Part shown: piece after piece, positions 18,879 to 32,895 of the stretch
Layout: the number at the start of each line of letters is the position of its first letter
How positions within the stretch are numbered: position 1 is the stretch's first letter
NCBI GenBank assembly: GCA_030765605.1
Contig: JAVCCG010000098.1
Span: 30,835-94,834, forward strand
Length of the DNA stretch: 64,000 nucleotides
Reading direction: 5' to 3'
From: Candidatus Alcyoniella australis
Lineage (GTDB): Bacteria > Lernaellota > Lernaellaia > JAVCCG01 > Alcyoniellaceae
Made by a program: the position numbers and the translations under genes
The notes under the pieces: model-generated
What the model saw: the letters and a program-made list of their open reading frames with translations, nothing else
What the model was told of the DNA's origin: nothing
Databases searched by the model: none

Positions 18879-19160
18879 GAGTATTCCTCATAGTACGATG
18901 AATTAACGATCAAATACTGGGGGTGCCTCCACCTGAGATAAGCTCATAGCACAACCCAAAGGCTATTTCCAGAAATTTTTGCTTAGCTTTTCACTTCAAG
19001 AGAGCAGGAGGATACAATTTCTTGTATTCAAGCCCAGCCATTGCAAATGATCAACCGCATTTAGACTTGGCGGAAAGGGCGAAATTGTCGGAACTGCAAC
19101 CACGATCCGCGTTGATAAAAATTGTTAAACCATCGAGGTACGGGTAATCTCTTTACACTG

Positions 19161-21176
19161 ATGACAAGCTCGATGATCAGACTGTCAATGTTGGGCGATC
19201 TGGGTGCGCCGGCGATTTTGCGCGGGTTCGCCCTGGTGGCGCTGGTGCTGCTGGGCAGCGCCGGGATCGGACGTTTTCTGCGCAAGCGCATGATTGCAAA
19301 GGCGATCCCCGCGCAGAACAGTATCGACATCGCCCTTGGCCTGGGCCTGTGGGGCCTAATCTGCCAGTTCTATGGACTATTTGTGGGCGTGGGCCGCAGC
19401 TCGGCGCTGGTGCTGCTGATCGTGCTCGCCGCGTTGGGTGCACCGAGCCTGGGACGTGCTTTGCGTTGGGTGGTGCGCGCCAATAAATCGCGCGGCCCGC
19501 TGCTCGGCGCGTTGGCAAGCGGCCCGCTTTTCGATCGGCTGTTGGGTCTGAGTATTTTGATCGTCAGCAGCTGGACCGTGCTCGCGGCGCTGACCCCGGA
19601 GATCGAGCCCGACGCACTGGCCTACCACCTGCAACTTCCACGGCTGTGGCACGAGCAGGGGCGGATTTTCCTGCCCTACGATTTATACATGGCGGGCTAT
19701 CCGCTGTTGGCCGAGACGCTGTTCTGGCCGTTGTGGTCGTTGGGCGCGCCGCTGGCCGCCAAGTGGCTGCATCTGGCCGCGGGCCTGGTCGTGGTCATGG
19801 GCGTGATCGATTTCAGCGCGGCGTTGCACGGCCGTCGCGCCGGGCTGCTCGCCGGGCTACTGCTGGTCTCGGTCCCGGGCTGGATCTGGTCGAGCACCAC
19901 GGCCAACGTCGATCTGATGCTATGCCTGTTCGTCTGGGCCGCGGTGGTGCTGGTGCTGCTGCGCGAGCTGGAGTGCGGTCGCGGCGTGCTGCTGCTCGCC
20001 GGGATCTGCGCCGGACTGGCGCTGAACGTCAAGGTCACGGCCGTGATCTTTGTCGCCCCGCTGTTCGTACTGGCCGCCGGGCTGTCCCTGCGGCGCTCCC
20101 GGCTGAATTACGGCAAGCGCAAGATTTTGATCGCGCTGTTCGACCTGGCGCTGGCGGCGCTGCCGGCCGTTGCACTGTTCATGCTTTGGCCGCTGAAGAA
20201 TTGGTTGCTGGGCGTGCCCGCGCTCTATCCCGCGGCGATCGACCCCTGGCGCGCGGGCTGCACGGTGCTTCGCATTGCCCAGCATCCCTGGTGCGCAGCC
20301 GGGCCCAATTGCGAGCTGTGGTGCGAGGACGCGGCCCTGGTGACCTTCATCAAGGTCCAGCTGCTCAACCTGTTTGGCATGGGCAAGGACGCCGCCGGGT
20401 TCGCCTTGCTGCCCTGGAACCTGACGTTGCACCCGGAGAAGTTCGGCGGCGTGCCCCTGGGATTGGCCTGGCTGCCGCTGTGGGCCCTGGTGCTGGGCCT
20501 GCGCAAGCCCGACGTGGGCAGCGTTAGTTTGTTGTTTGCAAGCGCCCTGGGCTTTGTTGCCTGGTCGCTGGGCAGCCAGCAGTCGCGCCTGCTGCTGCCG
20601 TTGCTGCCGCTGTGCGCCACGCCCCTGGTGCTGCCCCTGGCGCAGCCTGCACTCCTGCGCATGGGCAAAGGCAGCGCAAAGCTGATCAGCACAATTTTCA
20701 GCGCGCTGCTGGTGGCCGCGGCCGTGGCCGGGCTGCCCGCGATCTATCCGCTGTTGTATGGTGATCCGCTGTTCAAGACCCAATCGGCATTGACCGTGTT
20801 CGAGCGCCGCGCACCGCTGGAGCTGCTCGTTTCGCATGCGCATAACGACGCGCTGAGCCTGCTGCTATCCGCCGAGCAGGTCGTGGCCGCGGACGAGGCC
20901 GTGCTCACCAGCGGGGTCGAGGAGTACCTCTACACTGACCTGGAGCTGATCTCGCCGTCCCACTCCCCGCGCGCATTTGGGGTGGAGTACGAGCTGCGCA
21001 ACGGGTCGTGCGATCGCGCCCAAGAGCTGTTGCAACTCCACCGGCTGCGCTACGCGATAAGCAGAAACGATGAGGCGGCCGAGCGCTTTGGCCGCTGCGC
21101 CGTCGAATTTAAGCCGCTACTGCAAACCCGCCACAGCGGCTATTCGCTGTTTGAATTAAACCCAGGCGGGCAATGA
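19161..21176 (+). CDS. Large polytopic membrane protein (possible GT-C/ArnT-like glycosyltransferase)
   Basis: About 670 aa with >12 predicted TM helices; start uncertain (TTG 19122, ATG 19161/19173/19188); function inferred only from topology. Confidence 0.55.
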   Translation: MTSSMIRLSMLGDLGAPAILRGFALVALVLLGSAGIGRFLRKRMIAKAIPAQNSIDIALGLGLWGLICQFYGLFVGVGRSSALVLLIVLAALGAPSLGRALRWVVRANKSRGPLLGALASGPLFDRLLGLSILIVSSWTVLAALTPEIEPDALAYHLQLPRLWHEQGRIFLPYDLYMAGYPLLAETLFWPLWSLGAPLAAKWLHLAAGLVVVMGVIDFSAALHGRRAGLLAGLLLVSVPGWIWSSTTANVDLMLCLFVWAAVVLVLLRELECGRGVLLLAGICAGLALNVKVTAVIFVAPLFVLAAGLSLRRSRLNYGKRKILIALFDLALAALPAVALFMLWPLKNWLLGVPALYPAAIDPWRAGCTVLRIAQHPWCAAGPNCELWCEDAALVTFIKVQLLNLFGMGKDAAGFALLPWNLTLHPEKFGGVPLGLAWLPLWALVLGLRKPDVGSVSLLFASALGFVAWSLGSQQSRLLLPLLPLCATPLVLPLAQPALLRMGKGSAKLISTIFSALLVAAAVAGLPAIYPLLYGDPLFKTQSALTVFERRAPLELLVSHAHNDALSLLLSAEQVVAADEAVLTSGVEEYLYTDLELISPSHSPRAFGVEYELRNGSCDRAQELLQLHRLRYAISRNDEAAERFGRCAVEFKPLLQTRHSGYSLFELNPGGQ

Positions 21177-21181
21177 CGCCG

Positions 21182-21781
21182 TCAATGCTGTGATTTGAGG
21201 GTCTGCCAGAGCCGCTCGACCTGGCGCTGCAACGCTTCGAGGCTGCCGTTGTTGCGAATCGCGAAGTCGGCGTAGTCCAGCTTCTCCTTCATCGGCATCT
21301 GCGAATCCAGGGCTGCTTGAGCTTGCTGCTCGTCCACACCGTCGCGCTGGATCAGTCGCTGGATCTGTTTGCGCTGCGTGCAATAGACCACGATCAAGCC
21401 GCTAAGCGGAAACGGATGCTCGGTCTCGATCAGCAGCGCCGCCTCGACAATCACCGGCTCGGTGCTGTGCTCGAAATGGTCGCGCACGCGGCCGACGATG
21501 CTGCCGATAATCAGCGGATGGGAGATCTCGTCGAGCTTGGCCTTGGAGTCGGGGTCGGTGAAGATCTGCTCGCGCAGCCGCCGGCGGTCGATCTCGCCGT
21601 CCGGGCCGACAATTCCGCTGCCGAACTCGGCCACGACCCGATCAAAGGCCGACTGCCCCTTGGCCATCACGTCGCGCGCCACCTGGTCGGCATCGATCAC
21701 CGTGGCGCCGAGCTTGGCAAAGACCTTGGCCGCAGTGCTTTTTCCCGAGGCGATGCCTCCGGTCAATCCGTAGATTTTCAT
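21182..21781 (-). CDS. coaE: Dephospho-CoA kinase
   Basis: ATG 21781 overlaps upstream stop (ATGA); MKIYGLTGGIASGKST P-loop and CoaE-length (~199 aa). Confidence 0.9.
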   Translation of the reverse strand: MKIYGLTGGIASGKSTAAKVFAKLGATVIDADQVARDVMAKGQSAFDRVVAEFGSGIVGPDGEIDRRRLREQIFTDPDSKAKLDEISHPLIIGSIVGRVRDHFEHSTEPVIVEAALLIETEHPFPLSGLIVVYCTQRKQIQRLIQRDGVDEQQAQAALDSQMPMKEKLDYADFAIRNNGSLEALQRQVERLWQTLKSQH

Positions 21782-22482
21782 CCGTTGCCAAGCATCCGTT
21801 GGGCCTCGGGCAACAATTGGATCTGCAGCCCGCCGAAGCGTTCGCGGTCGTAATGCGGAACAACCTTGCCCTGCTTCAGCGCATCGATCATCCGGCGCGG
21901 AGTGTCGGCTGATTCGGGGAAAGTGGTCCAACACTTGAAAAAGCTTTCCTTTTCGTGGGCGTCGGAACCGGCAGTGCAGGTCAGTTTCTGCGATGTGGCG
22001 ATCTGCTGCAGACGGTCGAAGTAGACCTGCCGTACCGAGCCCATGGTCGCCAGGAACAGCATTGTGCCGTTGTACAGCTCAAGGCCGTCGATGTGGCGCG
22101 CCACCTCGAGAATCTCCTTGGAGATCGGGTCGGGTCCGGTCCAGCCCGAGGATTGCGGCACGCGCGGATGGGCCCAGATCACTGCGTTGTGCTCGTCGCG
22201 GCGCAGATCGCACACCGAGCGGTGGAACACGGTGAGAGAGGACAGGTAGTCGGTGTCCTCTGAGAAAATCAGGAAATCGCCCTCCTCGGCCGTGACCTCG
22301 ACCCCCCAGAGCACGCACAACTCGGGGAAGTCGCGGCTGAGCCGCGCACAGGCCTTGACGCTGCCGTGGTCGGTGATCGTGATCGCCAGGGGCATTTGCT
22401 TCTCGACGTACTCGCAGACCGTTTCGTAACTCAGGCTCGAGCAGTCGGAGAAGGTCGTGTGTAGGTGGAGGTCGATATCCAT
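21778..22482 (-). CDS. PHP-domain metal-dependent phosphoesterase
   Basis: MDIDLHLHTTFSDCS N-terminal PHP motif, later HP..., GSDAH. Confidence 0.8.
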   Translation of the reverse strand: MDIDLHLHTTFSDCSSLSYETVCEYVEKQMPLAITITDHGSVKACARLSRDFPELCVLWGVEVTAEEGDFLIFSEDTDYLSSLTVFHRSVCDLRRDEHNAVIWAHPRVPQSSGWTGPDPISKEILEVARHIDGLELYNGTMLFLATMGSVRQVYFDRLQQIATSQKLTCTAGSDAHEKESFFKCWTTFPESADTPRRMIDALKQGKVVPHYDRERFGGLQIQLLPEAQRMLGNG

Positions 22483-22685
22483 TCGGTGGTGTTCCCAGGC
22501 CTTTATATCACCCTAGCGAGCGGCCGGTCGGTTCCTCGGAATACGGACGAGGCCGACAAGCTGCAATCCTATGGCCGGTCGGCCAAGCTGTCAATTATCG
22601 ATCTGGGCGTAAAAACTGTTGTCTTGCATTACCACTACCGCACAACTAGGATTGATTTTTCACCATAAGATGGGGATTTATTAAA

Positions 22686-24479
22686 ATGGAACAGCTTACC
22701 ATTCCCCGTATGGTGTTCGGCCGCGTGGCACGGCAGGGCGATCGTTTGGCCGTGCGCCATCGCCGCGGCGGGGTGTTCCACGATCTATCCTGGAACCAAT
22801 ACGGCGAGGCGATCGCCGACGTCGCACGGGGGCTCGAGGCGCTGGGTCTCGAGGAGGGCCAGCGCACTGCGATACTCTCCAACACGCGCATCGAGTGGCA
22901 TTTCGCGGACCTGGGCACCCAGAGCCTGGCCGGCATCGCCGTGGGGATCTACCCCACGCTGCTGGCCGAAGAGGTGGGATTCATCCTGCGCGACTGCGGC
23001 GCCAAAGTCGTATTTTGCGAGGACTGGACCCAGTACGAAAAGGTCGTGCAGGTACGTGCCCAATGTCCGGAGCTGCTCCAAATTGTACTGTTGGATCCCG
23101 AGGGCGTGCAGCTCGGAGCCGACGTGCTGTCGCTCGATCAGCTACGCGCCAAGGGAGCGCAACTGCGCGAGGCCGATCCGGGCGGATTTGGCGACCTGCT
23201 CAAGCGCGGCAAGCCCGACGACCTGTTCACGATCATCTACACCTCGGGCACTACCGGCCGTCCCAAGGGGGCGATGATCTCCCACAACAACGCCCTGTCG
23301 GTCTGCCGCGCCATCGAGGAGCTAAACATCATCTCCGAGCGCGACGTATCGATCGAGTACCTGCCGCTGGCGCACGCCTACGAGCGGATCGGCGGGATGC
23401 TCCTCGGGCTCTACGCCGGCGGCGTCACCGCGATCGCCGAGAGCTTCGAGACCTTGCGCGACGACATCATCACCGTGCAGCCGACCGTGATGGTTGGAGT
23501 GCCGCGGGTGTTTGAGAAGATCTACGACTCGATCCGCAACTCGGTCGAGCAAAGCGGGACGGCTCGCCGCAAACTTTTCGAGTGGGCACTTAGCGTGGGG
23601 CGCGAGGCGCTGCCCTATCGCCTCAAACGGCTGCCGTTGCCCTACCAGCTCAAGCTGCGCTACGCCCTGGCCGACAAGTTGGTATTCACCCGGCTGGCCC
23701 AGAAGCTGGGCGGCAGGCTGCGCTTTGCGCTCTCCGCGGCCGCTCCGTTGTCCCAGGAGATCATCGAATTCTATTTCAGCCTCGGCGTGACCCTGTTGCA
23801 GGGCTTTGGCATGACCGAGTGCTCGGCTCCGGCGGCGATCACCACTCCCGAGGACCCGGCGATCGGCACGGTGGGCAAGCCGCTGAGCTGCAACGAGATC
23901 AAGCTGGCCGACGACAGCGAGGTGCTGATCCGCGGCGCCAACGTGTTCAAAGGCTACTGGAACAATCCCAAGGACACGGCCGAGGCGCTCGACGATAAAG
24001 GCTGGCTGCACACCGGAGACATCGGCGTCATCGACGCCGACGGCAACCTGATCATCACCGACCGTAAAAAGCACTTGATCATCACCGCCGGCGGCAAGAA
24101 CATAGCCCCCGTGGCAATCGAGAACGCGTTGAAGTCCGAGCCGTACATCACCGAGGCGCTGGCCTACGGCGACAGGCGGCCCTACCTGGTGGCGCTGCTC
24201 ACCGTGGACGAGGAACGCATCCAAAGCTTCGCCCACGAGCAGCAAATCCAGGCCGACGACTTCGCTACGCTGCTCAATAACCCGTCGATCAAAGTCTTGA
24301 TCGACCACTGCGTCGAGAAGGCCAACTTGACCCTGCCGCGCTTCGAGCAAATCAAGCGCTTCCATATACTGCCCGGTCAATTCTCGATCGAAGACGGGAC
24401 CCTGACGCCGACACTGAAACTCAAACGCCGTAAGATAATCGAAAGGTACTCTGAACTCATCGACGAGATGTACAACTAG
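22686..24479 (+). CDS. AMP-forming long-chain acyl-CoA ligase
   Basis: 597 aa; YTSGTTGRPKGAM, GFGMTEC, GWLHTGDIG, KLKR near C-terminus. Confidence 0.9.
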   Translation: MEQLTIPRMVFGRVARQGDRLAVRHRRGGVFHDLSWNQYGEAIADVARGLEALGLEEGQRTAILSNTRIEWHFADLGTQSLAGIAVGIYPTLLAEEVGFILRDCGAKVVFCEDWTQYEKVVQVRAQCPELLQIVLLDPEGVQLGADVLSLDQLRAKGAQLREADPGGFGDLLKRGKPDDLFTIIYTSGTTGRPKGAMISHNNALSVCRAIEELNIISERDVSIEYLPLAHAYERIGGMLLGLYAGGVTAIAESFETLRDDIITVQPTVMVGVPRVFEKIYDSIRNSVEQSGTARRKLFEWALSVGREALPYRLKRLPLPYQLKLRYALADKLVFTRLAQKLGGRLRFALSAAAPLSQEIIEFYFSLGVTLLQGFGMTECSAPAAITTPEDPAIGTVGKPLSCNEIKLADDSEVLIRGANVFKGYWNNPKDTAEALDDKGWLHTGDIGVIDADGNLIITDRKKHLIITAGGKNIAPVAIENALKSEPYITEALAYGDRRPYLVALLTVDEERIQSFAHEQQIQADDFATLLNNPSIKVLIDHCVEKANLTLPRFEQIKRFHILPGQFSIEDGTLTPTLKLKRRKIIERYSELIDEMYN

Positions 24480-24534
24480 GACCCGGATCTTTGATGATGG
24501 TTATCAGGCAATCATCCGGGCGAGTGAGGAGCTT

Positions 24535-25644
24535 ATGAGCGAACAGATCCAGAGAATGGTCGAACTGGCCGCCGATCCCGCGGCCACGCTGGCCGACTAC
24601 AGAAAAAGCAGCGGTCGGCCGGCGATGCTCATCGTGCCGCTGTACTTCCCACGCGAGGTGCTCGACGCCGCGGGCTTCATCCCAGCCGAGATCTGGGGCG
24701 CTGCCCTGCCGTTGGACGAGTCCGGCGCGTTTTTACAGCCGACGATCTGCTCGTTGATGGTCGGGCTGTTCGAGCTGGGACTGTCCGGCGGCCTGGAAGG
24801 GGTCAGCGGGGCTGTGTTCCCCTCGACCTGCGACACGGTGCAAAACTCCGAGAGTATCTGGGCCTCGCGTTTCCCCAAGATGTTTGTCGGCCACGTGGTG
24901 ATGCCCAAGATCACCAGCGCCACGGGCGCGGGCGAGTTCATCGCGGCCCAAATCCGCGAGTTCATCGCCGCGCTGCATAAGGCCACGGGCGCCACTCTCG
25001 ACGACGAGTCGTTGGCGCGCTCGATCGCCTTGGGCAACACGGCGCGCGCCGCGGCCAGAGGGCTGCTCGATCTGGCGGGGCGCGGGCTGCTCAGCGCAAC
25101 CGAGCGCAACGCGGTCTACGTGCTGTACAACCTGCTGCCCTTCGACGCCTTTATCGAGCTGGCCGCAGCCGCGGCCGCCCAGGCCGAGCAGCGCAGCCCG
25201 GCCCTCGATGCCAAGCCGGTGCTGGTCTCGGGCATGGTGCTCGGGCCGCGGCCGGTGATCGCGCTCTACGACGAGCTGGGCGCGCGGATTGTAGACGACG
25301 ATCTGGGCATCGGCCGCCGCAGCATCGACCCGGACGTCGACCAGAACGGCGACCCGATCGTGGCGCTGGCCGCACGGCAGCTGGGACGCCGTGCGTGCTG
25401 CACGATTCACGACTCGCAGCGCGATCGCGCGGCGGAGTTGGTCGAGCAAACCAAAGCCTGCGCAGCCGAGGGCGTGATCTTCTCGCGCCTCAAATTCTGC
25501 GACCCCGAGGCTTTCGACTACCCCTGGCTCTCCGGCGCGCTCAAAGAGGCCGGAGTACCCAGCACGTTGCTCGAGATCGACCTGGGCAGCGACGCAATCG
25601 AGGCCACAACAACCCGCATGCAAGCATTTCTGGAGAGCCTCTGA
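24535..25644 (+). CDS. 2-hydroxyacyl-CoA dehydratase / benzoyl-CoA reductase BcrC-HgdB-like subunit
   Basis: 369 aa; family-typical Cys contexts (TICSLM, PSTCDT, ACCTIHD, LKFCDPE). Confidence 0.75.
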   Translation: MSEQIQRMVELAADPAATLADYRKSSGRPAMLIVPLYFPREVLDAAGFIPAEIWGAALPLDESGAFLQPTICSLMVGLFELGLSGGLEGVSGAVFPSTCDTVQNSESIWASRFPKMFVGHVVMPKITSATGAGEFIAAQIREFIAALHKATGATLDDESLARSIALGNTARAAARGLLDLAGRGLLSATERNAVYVLYNLLPFDAFIELAAAAAAQAEQRSPALDAKPVLVSGMVLGPRPVIALYDELGARIVDDDLGIGRRSIDPDVDQNGDPIVALAARQLGRRACCTIHDSQRDRAAELVEQTKACAAEGVIFSRLKFCDPEAFDYPWLSGALKEAGVPSTLLEIDLGSDAIEATTTRMQAFLESL

Positions 25645-26855
25645 TGAACGACAAAGCAGCAATCCCGCGGATCGAGGCGACGCGCAAGCTCAAAGAGCTG
25701 ATGGGCATCTACTATCTCGAGGCCAAGAACGCCGAGTACAACAACCAGAAGGTGGCCTGGGTCACCTCCGGCTCGCCGGTCGAGACCTTGATCGCCATGG
25801 ACGTGATCCCGATCTACCCCGAGAACCACGGCGCGATGATCGGCGTGACCCGCATGGGCGTCGAACTCAGCGAGGTGGCCGAGGGCATGGGCTACTCGCC
25901 GGACCTCTGCTCGTACTTCCGCGCCGACGTGGGCCAGGCCGCAACCGGCAACAGCCCCATCGCCGGACTGCCCAAGCCGGACTTCCTCTACTGCTGCGAC
26001 AACATCTGCTCCACAGTGGTCAAGTGGTACGAGGTCCAGGGGCGCAAGTACGACGCGCCGGTGTTCTGGATCAACACGCCCTTCGTGCCCGACGAGATCA
26101 CCCCGGCGCACCGCAGCTACGTGGCCGGCCAGCTCGAACAGCAGGCCTACGCCATTGCCAAGCTTCTCGGGCGCGAGTTCGACATGGAGCACTTCATCGA
26201 CGTGCTGCGGCTCTCCGAACAGGCGACCCGCGTGTGGCAGGAGTGCCTCAACCTCTGCCAACACAAGCCCGCGCCCATGAGCTCCATCGACAGCTTCTTT
26301 CACATGGCGCCGATCGTCACTCTGCGCGGCACGCAGAAGTGTCTGGACTACTACACCATGCTGCGCGACGAGCTGCAGGACCGCATCGACAAGGGGATCG
26401 GCACGGTCCCCCAAGAAAAGCACCGGCTGCTGTGGGACAACCTGCCGATCTGGTTCTGGACCAAGGGGCTGGCCGAGCTGACCAACAGCCTGAGCGCGGT
26501 GTTCGTGGTCTGCACCTACACCTCGAGCTGGGATATCGGCGCGGACACCATGCTCGTGGACGACCCCTGGCAACCGATGGCCGACACCTACCTCTTCCCG
26601 TACATCAACCGCGGGATGGAGGTGCGCATCAGAATGCTCGAGAACTGGATCAAACAGTTCGACGTGGACGGCCTGGTGTTCCACTCCAACCGCTCGTGCA
26701 AAGCCTACACCCTGGGCCAATACGAGCTGGCCAAGCTGGTCAGCGAGCGCACGGGCAAGCCCAGTCTGGTGATCGAGGGCGACATGTGCGACATGCGGCT
26801 GTTCAGCGAAGCCCAGACCGTCACCCGGCTCGAGGCGTTCATCGAAAGCCTCTAA
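25644..26855 (+). CDS. 2-hydroxyacyl-CoA dehydratase HgdA-like subunit
   Basis: ATG 25644 shares its A with upstream TGA (TGATG); 403 aa; SGSPVE..., DLCSYFR, CDNICSTV, RSCKAY, GDMCD motifs typical of the HGD-D family. The 25395 start in the track lies inside the previous gene. Confidence 0.75.
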   Translation: MNDKAAIPRIEATRKLKELMGIYYLEAKNAEYNNQKVAWVTSGSPVETLIAMDVIPIYPENHGAMIGVTRMGVELSEVAEGMGYSPDLCSYFRADVGQAATGNSPIAGLPKPDFLYCCDNICSTVVKWYEVQGRKYDAPVFWINTPFVPDEITPAHRSYVAGQLEQQAYAIAKLLGREFDMEHFIDVLRLSEQATRVWQECLNLCQHKPAPMSSIDSFFHMAPIVTLRGTQKCLDYYTMLRDELQDRIDKGIGTVPQEKHRLLWDNLPIWFWTKGLAELTNSLSAVFVVCTYTSSWDIGADTMLVDDPWQPMADTYLFPYINRGMEVRIRMLENWIKQFDVDGLVFHSNRSCKAYTLGQYELAKLVSERTGKPSLVIEGDMCDMRLFSEAQTVTRLEAFIESL

Positions 26856-27673
26856 TGCGTAACCCCGCGGGCCGGATCGTTGCCCTGCGTGAGCAGATCC
26901 GCGGACTGGGCTCGGCCCTGATTGCGCTCTCCGGCGGCGCGGACTCAGCGCTGCTCGCTGCCCTGGCCGCGGATGAGCTTGGAGAGAGTGCTGCAGCGGC
27001 AACCGCCGTGGGACCATTGTTTGCGCAGCACGAGGTCGAGCGCGCCCAAGGTTTGTGCCGCCGCCTTGGCCTGCGCCACGAGCTAATCGAGTTCGATCCG
27101 CTGCACCACGAGGCGTTCGTGCGCAACCCGCCGGATCGCTGCTTTTTTTGCAAACACGAGATGCTGCGCCTCTGCCGCGAGATGGCCGACCGGCTGGAAC
27201 TGGAGCACGTGTGCGAGGGGACCAACGCCCAGGAGCTCTCCGAGCACCGTCCGGGCCTGGCCGCAATCCGCGAGCTTTGCATACAAACGCCACTGCTCGA
27301 CGCGGGCCTGGACAAGTCCGATGTACGGCGCGCCTTAGCCAAGTTGGGGCTAAACGACTGGGTCCGGCCTTCATCAACCTGCCTGGCCACGCGCTTTGCC
27401 CACGGCATGCCGATCACCCGCGAGGGTCTGCGTCGGGTGGAGGCCTGCGAGCAGGACCTGGCCCGGATGGGGTTTACAGAGTTCCGCGTGCGACACCACG
27501 GCGATAGCGCGCGCATCGAGCTTTGCGAAGATCAACTCAGCCGGGCCCTGGATCCCAAGCTGCGGCGCGCCATCGTGACTGCCCTGCGCGGCCATGGCTT
27601 TTCCTTTGTCAGCCTCGACCTCGAGGGCTTCTCAAGCGGCAAGATGGAGCGTAACGCTGACAAAGGGGTGTAA
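26855..27673 (+). CDS. LarE-like PP-loop ATP pyrophosphatase (TIGR00268-type sulfur transferase family)
   Basis: ATG 26855 overlaps upstream TAA (TAATG); SGGADS PP-loop, RCFFCK (CxxC), RPSSTCLATRF, FRVRHHGDSARIE; only the last 272 aa of the 549-aa track ORF. Confidence 0.85.
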   Translation: MRNPAGRIVALREQIRGLGSALIALSGGADSALLAALAADELGESAAAATAVGPLFAQHEVERAQGLCRRLGLRHELIEFDPLHHEAFVRNPPDRCFFCKHEMLRLCREMADRLELEHVCEGTNAQELSEHRPGLAAIRELCIQTPLLDAGLDKSDVRRALAKLGLNDWVRPSSTCLATRFAHGMPITREGLRRVEACEQDLARMGFTEFRVRHHGDSARIELCEDQLSRALDPKLRRAIVTALRGHGFSFVSLDLEGFSSGKMERNADKGV

Positions 27674-27704
27674 CCAACGCCGCGGCGCTGTAATATCTGA
27701 GCCC

Positions 27705-30700
27705 ATGGAGTTCACCGGAGAACGGCTGGTCCCAGGCAAGACGCCGGACCGCGACCTGGAGCGCGAGCATCTGGCGCGCTACATCTTTGCCGCGGGCCTG
27801 GCCAAGGGCCGCCGCGTGCTCGACCTGGGCTGCGGCGCAGGGTACGGCGCGCAGCTATTGCTCCAATCCGGCGCACAGAGCGTTCTGGGCCTGGACGTCG
27901 CATCCGAGGCCGTGGAGTACGCGCGCCAAAATTACAGCGCCGATAACCTGCGCTTTGAAATCGGCGACGCCGCGAACCCCGAGATCGAACCACAGAGCTT
28001 CGACCTGGTGGTCTGCTTCGAGGTCATCGAACACCTGCTGCAGCAACGCGAGCTGGTCCAGGCAGCGGCGCGCACCCTGGTGCCCGGCGGACTGTTCGTA
28101 GTCTCCACGCCCAACGTCGCGGCCCCCAGCTACGAGGAACACGACAATCCGTTCCACGTCAAAGAGCTCAACCGCAAGCAGTTCGACAAGTTGCTGCACG
28201 GCGCGTTTCAACACGTCGAACTGCTGGGACAGTCGCGCTTCGCAGGCCACGCGGTGCTGCCGATTAAGGGCGATGCACAGCCGCGCATCGAGCGCCTCGA
28301 CCTTAAGCAAAGCGATCTGGAGCCGCTGTACTTCGTGGCGGTCTGCTCCTCGCGCAAGCTGCCCAAAATCAAGCCGCTGCTGGCGCGCGCGCCGTATTTT
28401 GGCAACCTCGACGAACTGCTAAGCCACCTCAAGACGCGCGATGCGCAGATCGAGCAGCGCGACGAGCGGATCGTCGAGCTACAGGACGAGGTCGGCCGCT
28501 CCAACCAATGGGCCCAAGGCCTGGATCAAGACCTCAAGCGCAATGAGCGCGAGCTGTCGCGGGCCAAGCTGCGCATCGCGCACCAGAGCGCCGAGATCGA
28601 GCGCGTGCGCCAAACCCTGGGCTACCGACTGCACCAAAAGCTCGCCCCCTGGGCACGCGGCACGCTGACCGTGCTCAAGTTCGCAACGCGGCTGACCGCA
28701 GTTGCTTTAGGCCTGGTTCTGGCCGTGCCGCTTGGCGCGCTGGCGCTGGTGCTGCTCGTACCGCGGCTGCTGCTGGCAATCGGGCTGACGCCGCTGGCGC
28801 TATACGTCTGGCTGCGCCTACGCCTGGCCGGAAGTGCTCAGCCCAAGCCCACGGGGCCCATCGCGCCCGCGCAGCCCATCGAGCCGCAGCGCGACGGGAT
28901 CAGCGTGATCGTCCCCACCTGGAACGGCCTGGACCTGGTGCGCGAATATCTACCGGGCGTGGCGCAGGACATCGCGGGCTATGCGTTCGAGGTCGAGCTG
29001 ATTTTGGTGGACAACGGCAGCGACGACGGCACGGCCCAGTGGGTTGAGCAGCACTTGCCGCAGGTGCGCGTGCTGCGTTTGGATCGCAACCTGGGGTTCG
29101 GCGGCGGTTGCAACGCCGGGGTCGAGGCCGCGCGCTTCGGCATCGTCTACATGCTGAACAACGACATGCGGGTCGAGCCCGGATTCCTCGAGCCGACCTG
29201 GCAAGCGTTCGAGGATCGCGAGCTGTTCGCCGCCACCAGCCGCATCAGCTTTGAGCAGCGCGACGGCGCAGCGCGACGCAGCGAGGAGTCGGGCCTGACT
29301 GTTGCGCATTGGCATCGCGGCCTGCTGCAACTGCGGCACCTGTTCGACAACCAAAGCGACGTTGCGCCCGCGCTCTACGCCGGCGGCGGTTCCAGCGGCT
29401 ATTGCAAGGCCAAGTTCCAGGCGCTGGGCGGGTTCGACGCGCTCTACGAGCCGTTCTACGTCGAGGATCTCGACCTGTCGTATCGCGCGTGGAAACGCGG
29501 ATTCCGCGTGCTCTACCTGCCCCAAAGCGCGGTGGTGCACAAACATCGCGGCACCATCGGCAAACACTACAGCCGTGCGCGTCTGTTCGACGTGTTCAGC
29601 CTCAACTATTTGCGTTTCACCTGGCGCGACATCACCGGCCGTGGCGAGCTGCTGCGCCACTGCCTGTGGCTGCCGTGGTCCGCGGCCCGCACGCTTTACG
29701 GCCGCAGCTCTCCGGGACAGGGCGTGAGCCTGCGTGCGCTGATCGGCGCGCTTAAAGACTTGCCGCAGATCTGCGCCGGTCGAACCCTCGAGTGCAAGGC
29801 GGCGGTTGTAAGCGACGATACGGTGCTGCAAATCAGCTCGAACCCCCTGGCGTTCCGCGAGCGTTGCGCACGTTTGGCAAAGTCGCCCCATCGCAGCGAT
29901 AAAAGCGGCGCGCCGATCTTGTTCATCTCGCCCTACTGCCCCTTTCCGCCAACCCACGGCGGCGCAGTGCGGATGTACAACGTGATGCGCCAGGTGGCCA
30001 AGCACCATCCCATCGGGCTGGTCTCGATGATCGAGCACGAGCATGAGCGCGACTCGCGCGACAAGCTGCTCGAGATCTGCGACGAGGTGCACTTCATGCT
30101 GCGCGGTCAACCCGACCGCATCAGCTGGAGCGATCCGGCCAGCGTACAAGAGTTCTACAGTGACGAGTTCGCGCGGTTGATCCAGCGTGTGCTGGCCCGC
30201 GGCGACTACCGCATTGTGCAGATGGAGTACACGATCCTGGCGCACTTCATGCCGCAAGATCCGCGGGTCAAGACCGTGTTGACCGAGATCGATCTGTACT
30301 TCGTCAGCTATCTGCGCGCAGCACGCGCGCAACGCGCATTGGGCAAACGGCTGCTGGGCTTTTACGAGTGGCTGCGGATGTTCCGCTACGAGCTGCGCTG
30401 GTGCCGACGCTACGATTTGCTGCTGGCGATGAGCGAACACGACCGCGACGTGCTGGCGCAGTACGTGAAGGAAACGCCGATCGAGGTCGCGCCCAACGGC
30501 GTGGACGTCGAGGACTTCAAGCTTTTGCCGCGCGAGCCCGACGGCCCGGAGCTGCTGTTCGTGGGCAACTTCCGTCACGCGCCGAACCTGGACGCCGCGT
30601 TGTGGATGGCGCGCGAGATCTTCCCCGAAGTGCGCAAGCGCGTACCCGATGCACGGCTGGCGATCTGCGGACCCAATCCGCCGGAGTCGATCGCGCGCTG

Positions 30701-31082
30701 CTCAGCCGACGAGGGGATCGAGGTCGCGGGATTCGTGCCCGACCTGGCGCCGCGCTACCAACGCGCCGCGTGCTTTGTCGCGCCGATCACCCGCGGCTCG
30801 GGCACCAGACTGAAAATTCTCGAGGCGCAAAGTTCGGGCCTACCGGTGGTCAGCACAACCCTCGGGGCCGAGGGGCTGGCAATCGAGCACGGCGAAAATT
30901 TACTTATCGCCGACAACACCGCAGACTTCGCCCAGGCCTGCGTGCGGCTGCTGACCGACGAAGCGCTGGCCCTGCGACTGCGTCGCAACGGCCGCGAGCT
31001 GGTCGAACGGGTCTACGCCTGGGAGCGAGTCGGCGATAAGCTCGAGGCGGCCTACGCGCGGCTGCTGGAGGAGGACCGATGA
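27705..31082 (+). CDS. Multidomain protein: class-I SAM methyltransferase - coiled coil - 2 TM helices - GT2 glycosyltransferase - GT4 glycosyltransferase
   Basis: ATG 27705 (MEFTGERLVPG); VLDLGCGAGYGA; heptad-rich RDAQIEQRDERIVELQDEV...; hydrophobic LGLVLAVPLGALALVLLV/LAIGLTPLALYVWL; ISVIVPTWNG...LVDNGSDDGT (GT2); EAQSSGLPVVSTTLGAEG (GT4 E-x7-E region). Confidence 0.85.
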   Translation: MEFTGERLVPGKTPDRDLEREHLARYIFAAGLAKGRRVLDLGCGAGYGAQLLLQSGAQSVLGLDVASEAVEYARQNYSADNLRFEIGDAANPEIEPQSFDLVVCFEVIEHLLQQRELVQAAARTLVPGGLFVVSTPNVAAPSYEEHDNPFHVKELNRKQFDKLLHGAFQHVELLGQSRFAGHAVLPIKGDAQPRIERLDLKQSDLEPLYFVAVCSSRKLPKIKPLLARAPYFGNLDELLSHLKTRDAQIEQRDERIVELQDEVGRSNQWAQGLDQDLKRNERELSRAKLRIAHQSAEIERVRQTLGYRLHQKLAPWARGTLTVLKFATRLTAVALGLVLAVPLGALALVLLVPRLLLAIGLTPLALYVWLRLRLAGSAQPKPTGPIAPAQPIEPQRDGISVIVPTWNGLDLVREYLPGVAQDIAGYAFEVELILVDNGSDDGTAQWVEQHLPQVRVLRLDRNLGFGGGCNAGVEAARFGIVYMLNNDMRVEPGFLEPTWQAFEDRELFAATSRISFEQRDGAARRSEESGLTVAHWHRGLLQLRHLFDNQSDVAPALYAGGGSSGYCKAKFQALGGFDALYEPFYVEDLDLSYRAWKRGFRVLYLPQSAVVHKHRGTIGKHYSRARLFDVFSLNYLRFTWRDITGRGELLRHCLWLPWSAARTLYGRSSPGQGVSLRALIGALKDLPQICAGRTLECKAAVVSDDTVLQISSNPLAFRERCARLAKSPHRSDKSGAPILFISPYCPFPPTHGGAVRMYNVMRQVAKHHPIGLVSMIEHEHERDSRDKLLEICDEVHFMLRGQPDRISWSDPASVQEFYSDEFARLIQRVLARGDYRIVQMEYTILAHFMPQDPRVKTVLTEIDLYFVSYLRAARAQRALGKRLLGFYEWLRMFRYELRWCRRYDLLLAMSEHDRDVLAQYVKETPIEVAPNGVDVEDFKLLPREPDGPELLFVGNFRHAPNLDAALWMAREIFPEVRKRVPDARLAICGPNPPESIARCSADEGIEVAGFVPDLAPRYQRAACFVAPITRGSGTRLKILEAQSSGLPVVSTTLGAEGLAIEHGENLLIADNTADFAQACVRLLTDEALALRLRRNGRELVERVYAWERVGDKLEAAYARLLEEDR

Positions 31083-31597
31083 GGTTCCTGCTCTCGCGCG
31101 GCGCACAGACCGACGACCCGGGGCGGGTGCTGATCGTGCAGACCTGCAACCCCAACCTGCTCGAGTACGTGATCGTTGACGCGCGCAAACGCTGGCCCGG
31201 GGCCGATCTGAGCGTGCTGCTACAGCGCGGGATGCGCGAGCACGTGCGCCTGCCCCAGGGCGTGCGCGGACTGGACAATCCCGCGGGCGGACATGGGCAG
31301 TTCGCGCGCGAGCTGCGCTCCGAGCGCTTTGATCTGATAGCGTTCAGCGGCGTGCGCGACCCGGGCTATTGGAAACTGCGGCTGCTGCCGTTCTATCTCA
31401 ACCCGCCGCGGATCGCGCTTTACGATCGCCACGCGCGTCCCGCTGACCTCGGACTTGCCGGATTGCTCGCAACGTTGCTGGGATCCGTGGGTCCGACCGG
31501 CGGCCCCAAGCGCCTGCTGCGCCGGCTGCTCGCGCCGCTGATTGCGGGCGGGCTGTTGCTCTACCTGTGGTACGAAAGGGCGAGGAGGGCCCGATGA
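31079..31597 (+). CDS. Hypothetical protein (172 aa) with C-terminal TM helix
   Basis: ATGA overlaps at both ends (31079-31082, 31594-31597); no family recognised. Confidence 0.6.
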   Translation: MRFLLSRGAQTDDPGRVLIVQTCNPNLLEYVIVDARKRWPGADLSVLLQRGMREHVRLPQGVRGLDNPAGGHGQFARELRSERFDLIAFSGVRDPGYWKLRLLPFYLNPPRIALYDRHARPADLGLAGLLATLLGSVGPTGGPKRLLRRLLAPLIAGGLLLYLWYERARRAR

Positions 31598-32895
31598 ACC
31601 TGCTGAAAAAAATTGAGAACCGCCAGGCCCGCGTGGGCGTGATTGGAGCCGGATACGTCGGCCTGCCGCTGGCCGTGGAGTTTGCCAAGGCCGGGTTCGA
31701 CACCACCTGCTTCGACGTGGACCCCGACCGCATCGAGTCGATCAACCGCGGACGCTCGCAGATCCAGGACGTGCCCAGCGCCGATGTGCTGCGGCTCAAA
31801 CGCGACGGCCTGCTGCGCGCCACCGGCGACTTTGAAGAGCTGGCCCAGATCGACGCGATCAGCATCTGCGTGCCGACCCCGCTGCGCAAAACCAAGGACC
31901 CGGACGTGAGCTACGTGGTGGCCGCGGTGGAGGAGATCGCCCTGCGCTTCAGCCCGGGCAAGCTGGTGGTGCTCGAGTCCACGACCTACCCGGGCACCAC
32001 CGACGAGATCCTGCAGCCGGTGCTCGAAAGCTCGGGCCTGGTCTGCGGCAAGGACTTCCATCTGGCGTTCTCGCCCGAGCGCGTGGACCCAGGCAACCAA
32101 CAATACAACACCAGCAACACGCCCAAGATCATCGGCGGCGTGACCCCGCGCTGCACCCAGGTCGCATGCGCGCTGTACGGCGCGGCGGTCGAGAAGGTTA
32201 TCCCGGTCAGCTCGACGCGCGCGGCCGAGATGGTCAAGCTTTTGGAAAACACATTCCGCGCTGTGAACATCGGCCTGGCCAACGAGACCGCGCTGATGTG
32301 CGACCGGCTGGGGATCGACGTCTGGGAAGTAATCGACGCCGCGGCGACCAAGCCCTTCGGCTTCATGCCCTTCTACCCCGGACCGGGCCTGGGCGGCCAC
32401 TGCATTCCCATCGACCCGCACTATCTGAGCTGGAAACTGCGCTCGCTGAACTACACCGCGCGCTTTATCGAGCTGGCGGGCGAGGTCAACTCCTCGATGC
32501 CGCGCTACGTGGTCGAGCGCTTGGCCGACCTGCTCAACGCGCGGCGTAAGCCGCTGAACGGCAGCCGGGTGCTGGTGCTGGGCACGAGCTACAAACGCGA
32601 CGTGTCCGACACCCGCGAATCCCCGGCCCTGGACATTATCAAGCTGTTGGCCCAACGCGGCACGCTGGTCGCGTATCACGATCCTTTCGTCAAAAGCCTC
32701 GATTTGGGCGAGGTCGAGCTGGAGTCGGTGCGGCTAACGCCGCAGGAGCTGTCTTCAGCCGACCTGACGTTGATCGTAGCCGACCACTCGCGCTTTAACT
32801 ACAACTCGATCGTGCGCAACTCGCAGCTGGTGCTGGACACGCGCAACGCCACGCGCAACGTGCGCCGCGGCCGCGACAAGATCGTTTTACTTTAG
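31594..32895 (+). CDS. UDP-sugar 6-dehydrogenase (UDP-N-acetyl-D-mannosamine/glucosamine dehydrogenase type)
   Basis: VGVIGAGYVGLPLA Rossmann motif, GGHCIPIDP catalytic Cys; start ATG 31594. Confidence 0.9.
   Translation: MNLLKKIENRQARVGVIGAGYVGLPLAVEFAKAGFDTTCFDVDPDRIESINRGRSQIQDVPSADVLRLKRDGLLRATGDFEELAQIDAISICVPTPLRKTKDPDVSYVVAAVEEIALRFSPGKLVVLESTTYPGTTDEILQPVLESSGLVCGKDFHLAFSPERVDPGNQQYNTSNTPKIIGGVTPRCTQVACALYGAAVEKVIPVSSTRAAEMVKLLENTFRAVNIGLANETALMCDRLGIDVWEVIDAAATKPFGFMPFYPGPGLGGHCIPIDPHYLSWKLRSLNYTARFIELAGEVNSSMPRYVVERLADLLNARRKPLNGSRVLVLGTSYKRDVSDTRESPALDIIKLLAQRGTLVAYHDPFVKSLDLGEVELESVRLTPQELSSADLTLIVADHSRFNYNSIVRNSQLVLDTRNATRNVRRGRDKIVLL

Follow-up and report, generated by a model that had tools for sequence, protein, structure and literature searches.

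Why should a gene for LarE, the sulfur insertase of nickel-pincer nucleotide (NPN) synthesis, be translationally coupled to the two subunit genes of a 2-hydroxyacyl-CoA dehydratase-like enzyme? The question is raised by a 64,000-nucleotide (nt) stretch of Candidatus Alcyoniella australis (assembly GCA_030765605.1, contig JAVCCG010000098.1, positions 30,835 to 94,834; hereafter the window, on contig C54 in our numbering), in which genes for an acyl-CoA ligase, a dehydratase beta subunit, a dehydratase alpha subunit and LarE follow one another on the plus strand. An earlier note, made from the letters of the window, had regarded the beta-alpha-LarE trio as orphan enzymes in need of a new function. 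Our analysis leads to a more conservative answer: known enzyme families gain new members here, in an operon arrangement that is a lineage-restricted curiosity. The ligase-beta-alpha-LarE unit looks as if it encodes conventional enzymes, only its gene order being unusual. As for the reason behind this order, we tentatively favor, with a confidence slightly short of even, the explanation that LarE is expressed together with a pathway for 2-hydroxy acids, LarA racemases supplying the substrate of an (R)-specific dehydratase.

The beta subunit (HadC/HgdB-like, 369 amino acids (aa)) is encoded at positions 24535-25644 and the alpha subunit (HadB/HgdA-like, substrate-binding, 403 aa) at 25644-26855, both on the plus strand. 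PF06050 (HGD-D) spans the full length of either protein (E 4.6e-58 for beta and 8.2e-71 for alpha), and the best NCBIfam models were HadC for beta (175.5 bits, equivalog cut-off 700) and HadB for alpha (273.6 bits, cut-off 750). Beta aligned end to end with chain B of 3O3M (E 1.4e-43), bringing three cysteine motifs of beta and HadC into register (ticS/faCS, stCD/gmCD and kfCDpe/kfCDpe), and alpha aligned over residues 11-401 with chain A (E 1e-65), its cysteines coinciding with those of HadB; C89, C122 and C352 of alpha are invariant across 12 orthologues. We take the aligned HadBC cysteines to be cluster ligands. Judged by these alignments, the pair is an iron-sulfur enzyme of the 2-hydroxyacyl-CoA dehydratase type, presumably oxygen-sensitive, whose two HGD-D subunits are paralogues with neighboring genes. 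Among the NCBIfam models scored no equivalog was reached by the pair, and as all scores lie far under the HadB and HadC cut-offs, the substrate probably differs from that of HadBC. The closest known counterpart is the HadBC/HadI system of Clostridioides difficile (3O3M/3O3N), likewise a two-subunit HGD-D enzyme with three conserved-motif cysteines per subunit. An activase of the HgdC/HadI type is encoded in the present genome as well, but is unlinked here, and an AMP-forming ligase seems to take the place of the CoA-transferase of the HadBC system. This ligase (22686-24479, plus strand; 597 aa, long-chain/FadD11-like) carries the Pfam domains AMP-binding (E 2.2e-75) and AMP-binding_C_3, and its best NCBIfam model was FadD11 with 420.7 bits, under the cut-off of 950; its type hints at a medium- or long-chain aliphatic 2-hydroxy acid as substrate.

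LarE (26855-27673, plus strand; 272 aa) scored 254.9 bits with TIGR00268 against a cut-off of 150, and was the sole over-threshold match in the genome. It aligned over its full length with LarE of Lactiplantibacillus plantarum (5UDQ; E 2e-34) and contains the PP-loop motif SGGADS as well as CFFC and STCLATR. In an alignment of 14 LarE sequences that included the copies linked to HGD-D genes, the PP-loop, C96, C99, C176, R211 and R213 are invariant, and Thr179, Arg211 and Arg213 align with Ser180, Arg212 and Arg214 of the L. plantarum enzyme, which are substrate-phosphate residues. LarE proteins with a CXXC-C arrangement of cysteines bind a [4Fe-4S] cluster and represent the form of most LarE homologues (PMC9283937). 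Here, LarE can be assigned to this type by its motifs, as a predicted ATP-dependent sulfur insertase of NPN synthesis. Its closest known counterparts are the [4Fe-4S] LarE of Thermotoga maritima (PMC9283937) and the sacrificial LarE of L. plantarum, with which it has in common the PP-loop SGGxDS, the CXXC-C cysteines, the third of them displaced by one residue relative to L. plantarum Cys176 as in the T. maritima enzyme, and the arginine equivalents. What sets it apart from both is a gene that lies away from larA, larB and larC, in translational coupling with that of a dehydratase subunit.

At both junctions within the trio, beta/alpha (TGATG, 25642-25646, plus strand) and alpha/LarE (TAATG, 26853-26857, plus strand), the stop codon overlaps the next ATG by 1 nt, while 55 nt separate the 3' end of the ligase gene from the start of beta. 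The earlier note had thus described the locus correctly: the coordinates of the start/stop overlaps, the identities of the HGD-D pair and of LarE, the three-Cys Fe-S type of the latter and the ligase gene upstream could all be confirmed. However, a crude genome-wide count gave ~320 stop/start overlaps among ~760 tight co-directional junctions, and because such overlaps are so common, those of the trio are a sign of co-transcription and nothing more. Promoter-like sites are confined to the divergent gap at 22.5-22.7 kb, and transcription of the unit probably begins with the ligase gene.

The dehydratase activator and the genes larB and larC are absent from the window, as had been noted before, and whole-genome family searches of the assembly (157 contigs totalling 4.29 Mb, with an estimated completeness of 98%) found no BcrAD_BadFG activase, LarB or LarC anywhere on C54. 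The same search of the genome, which the earlier note had proposed, located all three on other contigs and not just outside the window. A stand-alone activase is encoded at C79:1673-2527 (TIGR00241, 260.6 bits versus a cut-off of 125.4), with a metallophosphoesterase gene on one side and a Mur-ligase-like gene, then LptD, on the other; LarB lies on C96 (NF033503, 270.9 bits versus 175), LarC on C5 (TIGR00299, 204.9 bits; NF052512, 137.1 bits), and two LarA homologues, both under all equivalog cut-offs, on C136 and C11. The C79 activase was the best query for 46 of the 48 activases that adjoin pairs of the alpha clade in other phyla, with a median identity of 50%, and is likely to be the cognate activator of the pair. 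As LarE is single-copy and LarB, LarC and LarA are present, the NPN pathway would be complete and would need the gene of the trio. All four functions of the L. plantarum lar operon (larA-larB-larC-larE) are thus found here too, but with the genes scattered over five contigs. What looked like enzymes with no activator and no larBC nearby therefore reflects gene dispersal, not missing partners, which takes away the chief reason to postulate new chemistry: the notion of orphan enzymes could not be upheld in view of an activase, LarB, LarC and two LarA homologues encoded elsewhere, and of a LarE that is the only copy and of the majority type (PMC9283937). The genome has a separate HGD-D system at G000:C128:26708-30698, where the genes for two HGD-D subunits are clustered with those for two BcrAD_BadFG ATPase subunits of its own. 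It resembles class I benzoyl-CoA reductase, and the four-gene cluster is kept in several relatives of the class (L005, L008, L002, L003).

The source genome belongs to a GTDB class of four families (f1-f4), represented by 17 species genomes; its members are mutually related, and counts across the class are not independent. Genes in the relatives were called by open-reading-frame and GC3 (third-codon-position GC) heuristics plus tblastn. Each of the 17 genomes encodes a single copy of LarE, of LarB and of LarC, larB and larC being adjacent in most relatives and larE lying apart. LarE directly follows alpha in five of the 17, namely the source genome (f1), G008 (f4) and three members of genus g6 (f2), so that the linked state occurs in three of the four families, with an alpha-LarE gap of ~23-26 nt in g6 and G008. 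Beta-alpha-LarE is the sole block common to the window and the g6 loci, where all other flanking genes differ, and no ligase gene was seen next to the pair in the relatives from f2 and f4. In the alpha tree, f1, f4 and f2 fall into one clade (support 100/97) in the order (f1,(f4,f2)). With linkage present in f1, f4 and g6, this means one gain with two losses or three separate gains, i.e., long retention or repeated gain. Orthologues of the C79 activase (53-57% identity) are present in every f2 and f4 genome, unlinked from the pair; G012, the sole class genome devoid of HGD-D genes, is also the only one without a match to this activase at E 1e-20. The HGD-linked LarE proteins sit on long branches (1.4-1.65 versus a median of 0.31) and have the lowest TIGR00268 scores; their grouping into a single clade was not recovered in the free tree, and was not rejected either (p-AU 0.315, approximately unbiased test).

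The gene order around LarE in the relatives gives some clue to its history. In genera of f2 other than g6, LarE is joined to MnmA-ThiF, and in f3 to an inositol monophosphatase gene near AroE. G003 carries an inositol monophosphatase gene after alpha, at the position that LarE occupies in g6, and its product is 39% identical (E 6e-55) to the monophosphatase encoded after LarE in f3; this resemblance suggests an ancestral order beta-alpha-LarE-inositol monophosphatase that would have decayed piecemeal. Two further features of these loci were seen. At L148:5990-8658 (G007:C39), and also at L144 and L153, LarE overlaps the gene for the tRNA 2-thiouridylase MnmA, followed by a ThiF/MoeB-type gene, so that PP-loop and sulfur-relay enzymes form a small cluster in several f2 genera. 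The f2 pair itself (L046:2084-7150, G001:C84; the same in L042-L048) belongs to a conserved co-directional block of genes for a heptosyltransferase-like glycosyltransferase of family 9 (GT9), a family 2 glycosyltransferase (GT2), a metallophosphoesterase, beta and alpha; further along come genes for a membrane protein of the BrkB/YihY type and an uncharacterized one of 490 aa.

A second juxtaposition of Hgd and Lar genes was observed in f3, where an HGD pair is followed by its activase gene and then, tail to tail, by a gene for a LarA homologue (five genomes in three genera: L050:442-5168 (G010:C72), L052, L054, L055 and G016:C2:337352-341724). This pair represents another clade, 41-43% identical to the window alpha, and the LarA homologue of ~430-450 aa has the LarAH6 malate-racemase model as its best match, under the cut-off. 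Single in-frame TGA codons occur within alpha, activase or LarB matches of relatives (G016:C2:338692-339693, G002:C92:25763-26560 and G001:C7:6265-7023) and could mark pseudogenes, read-through of upstream sequence or selenocysteine. Open frames of ~1380-1410 aa with two tandem activase domains were seen in G008:C81, G008:C123, G010:C3, G014:C7 and G011:C91; these may encode activase/dehydratase-type fusions of the sort linked to anaerobic plasmalogen synthesis.

Beyond the class, the window alpha gave at least 594 matches within its clade, with ~50%-identical members in Desulfobacterales, Syntrophaceae, Spirochaetota, Actinomycetota, other metagenome-assembled genomes and Desulfosarcina widdelii. 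By sequence, alpha is thus a member of a widespread, uncharacterized and ligase-coupled clade of HadBC-like dehydratases. At the 80 best alpha loci, a beta gene was present at 76, an adjacent activase gene at 44 and a ligase gene at 23; a ligase 40-43% identical to that of the window is encoded directly upstream of beta-alpha at L065, L070, L087 and L112, which belong to other lineages. The other neighbors of the clade in different phyla (IclR, short-chain dehydrogenase/reductase (SDR), acyl-CoA dehydrogenase, radical SAM and U32 peptidase genes) give no clear clue to the substrate. In some uncultured bacteria (L065:7050-13755, L087, L067), ligase-beta-alpha is followed by a second alpha-like gene and then an acyl-CoA dehydrogenase gene, the product of the second alpha-like gene being 49% identical to the window alpha, with no activase gene within 10 kb.

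2-Hydroxyacyl-CoA dehydratases are known to accept the R enantiomer only. Under the explanation that we favor, the ligase would convert a 2-hydroxy acid into its CoA thioester, and the HadBC-like heterodimer, each subunit of which would hold a three-Cys [4Fe-4S] cluster, would be primed by one electron delivered at the expense of ATP by the HgdC-type activase from C79. The heterodimer would then turn the (R)-2-hydroxyacyl-CoA into the 2-enoyl-CoA by syn-dehydration via a ketyl radical. LarE, together with LarB (C96) and LarC (C5), would convert the mononucleotide of pyridinium-3,5-biscarboxylic acid (P2CMN) via that of pyridinium-3,5-bisthiocarboxylic acid (P2TMN) into NPN, to be used by the two LarA-type 2-hydroxy-acid racemases (C136, C11). 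Because the dehydratase accepts the R enantiomer only, NPN-dependent racemization of the free 2-hydroxy acid would allow both enantiomers to enter the pathway. With the sole gene for the NPN sulfur insertase switched on along with the ligase and dehydratase genes, an active pathway would then be assured of its racemase cofactor. The substrate class, the pairing with the C79 activase and the link from racemase to dehydratase are all three points that we infer. The notion has some background in the literature: LarA enzymes racemize or epimerize 2-hydroxy acids, hydrophobic linear ones included (PMC7583248, PMC11770544), and in the acrylate pathway stereoisomerization precedes lactoyl-CoA dehydratase (PMC8914356). 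In lactate fermenters, lactate racemase or lactoyl-CoA epimerase acts ahead of LcdABC (PMC8914356), the same logic of stereoisomerization followed by an (R)-specific radical dehydratase as proposed here. The acrylate pathway differs in handling lactate, in using a CoA-transferase and in having a clustered activase gene, whereas here a ligase is found and only a cofactor gene, not the racemase gene, is linked to the dehydratase.

Glycosyltransferase genes flank the unit. Upstream of the ligase gene lies a gene for a 684-aa PMT_2-like (ArnT-type) membrane glycosyltransferase (19122-21176, plus strand), followed on the minus strand, up to 22482, by genes for dephospho-CoA kinase and a PHP-domain phosphoesterase. 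Downstream, a methyltransferase-GT2-GT4 (glycosyltransferase family 4) fusion protein, PEP-CTERM/XrtA stp1-like, is encoded within 27594-31082 and begins ~30 nt past LarE (about 27705). No terminator-like site was seen after LarE, and the fusion gene may share a transcript with it. A search for riboswitches and other RNA elements in the region 21500-32000 gave a single sub-threshold chance match only.

Among the observations in support of the pathway link are the retention of beta-alpha-LarE while the flanks changed and the independent HGD-LarA pairing in f3. Several others weigh against it. No LarA gene adjoins the trio, which makes the link an indirect one, and the overlaps that join the trio are, as said, a common feature of the genome. 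In twelve of the 17 class genomes LarE lies elsewhere and adjoins unrelated genes as if in an operon with them. LarA (Lar_N or LarA_C) could not be detected in G001, G002, G007 and G011 (94-99% complete), four genomes that carry an HGD pair and LarBCE, and in G008 there was only a fragment. Outside the class, LarE was encountered at two of the 80 nearest alpha loci, both of them matching class contigs (of G005 and G008), and LarA at none; conversely, 80 metagenome loci of the nearest LarE relatives included LarB at 16 and LarC at 14, and an HGD gene at none. With LarE occurring only at class-matching alpha loci and HGD at none of the LarE loci, the beta-alpha-LarE trio is, among the loci sampled, confined to this class. 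Conservation of the neighborhood, raised as a check in the earlier note, thus held for five of the 17 class genomes and for no other place sampled. A more general association of LarA with HGD genes was considered as well and found no support in the class of Desulfosarcina widdelii, where none of 60 LarA loci, drawn from a sample of 201 genomes, had HGD, activase or larBCE genes within 6 kb on each side. In the supplement files examined from PMC7583248, HgdB and activase COGs do not occur in LarA contexts, and our literature search found no paper that mentions LarE together with a 2-hydroxyacyl-CoA dehydratase.

The same observations can be explained by inherited synteny, i.e., conventional parts without a functional link that persist as the remnant of a decaying ancestral gene order, with co-transcription being incidental; we regard this as a possibility to be taken seriously, with clearly less than an even chance. 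It would account for the monophosphatase at LarE's g6 position in G003 and its relative after LarE in f3, for the contacts of LarE with unrelated housekeeping genes such as MnmA-ThiF, for the placement of the f2 pair in a conserved block of mixed functions (GT9, GT2, metallophosphoesterase), for the lack of HGD-LarE adjacency at the loci sampled outside the class and for the frequency of overlapping junctions in the source genome. It fits less well with the comparison of f1 and f2, where every other flank has changed but beta-alpha-LarE is still tight (1-nt overlaps, or ~23-26 nt in g6 and G008), and with the second, independent juxtaposition of HGD and Lar genes in f3. At the other extreme, beta-alpha-LarE might be a selected functional module in which a client of LarE or NPN other than LarA, as suggested by the four genomes where LarA was not found, is tied to the dehydratase; LarE might deliver a non-core sulfide or cofactor to the HgdAB-like enzyme or thiolate its adenylated acyl substrate. 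We consider this improbable. A direct action of LarE on the dehydratase system, by thiolation of the adenylated acyl substrate or by delivery or repair of cluster sulfur, seems quite unlikely to us. It would be in line with the tight coupling of the trio genes, with the long branches and lowest TIGR00268 scores of the pair-linked LarE proteins, and with LarBCE being universal in the class while LarA was not found in four of the 17 genomes, which argues for another client of LarE or NPN there. However, the canonical job must fall to the trio's LarE, as it is the single LarE of a genome with LarB, LarC and LarA; all known ATP-, cluster- and substrate-phosphate-binding residues are kept, also in the HGD-linked copies (PMC9283937); LarE is not adjacent in the majority of genomes that carry this dehydratase clade; and long branches are partly expected for families sampled by one genome.

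LarE would be a bystander if the pair, in this class, acted on envelope lipids or glycolipids instead of in catabolism, for example by interconverting 2-enoyl and 2-hydroxy fatty acyl-CoA under anaerobic conditions to supply a glycolipid. The long-chain type of the ligase, the glycosyltransferase genes flanking the pair both here (PMT_2-like; methyltransferase-GT2-GT4) and in f2 (GT9, GT2, with the metallophosphoesterase), and the position of the C79 activase gene two genes upstream of LptD are consistent with this idea. We nevertheless think it unlikely, since the same alpha clade appears in other phyla in a catabolic setting with ligases, IclR, SDRs and acyl-CoA dehydrogenases, the f1 and f2 glycosyltransferases are not mutual homologues at E 1e-10, and no lipid-specific enzyme consistently adjoins the pair. 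Finally, NPN made with the trio's LarE might serve a client other than LarA in the dehydratase's pathway, comparable to NphT, an enzyme of the aldo-keto reductase (AKR) fold identified because its gene lies next to larBCE. Adjacency of this kind has recently led to the discovery of non-LarA NPN enzymes (PMC13524815), a precedent that speaks for the idea along with the four class genomes that have LarBCE and no detectable LarA. No candidate client gene is conserved beside the trio, though, and the source genome has two LarA homologues, which makes this a very remote prospect.

The co-expression of LarE with a racemase-fed dehydratase pathway thus stays our preferred, tentative explanation. One small uncultured high-GC class shows two independent juxtapositions of Hgd and nickel-pincer genes, with LarE in f1, f2 and f4 and with LarA in f3. 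A real link would point to an anaerobic route that uses both enantiomers of 2-hydroxy acids, and gene context would then help to tell which substrates unassigned LarA homologues act on.

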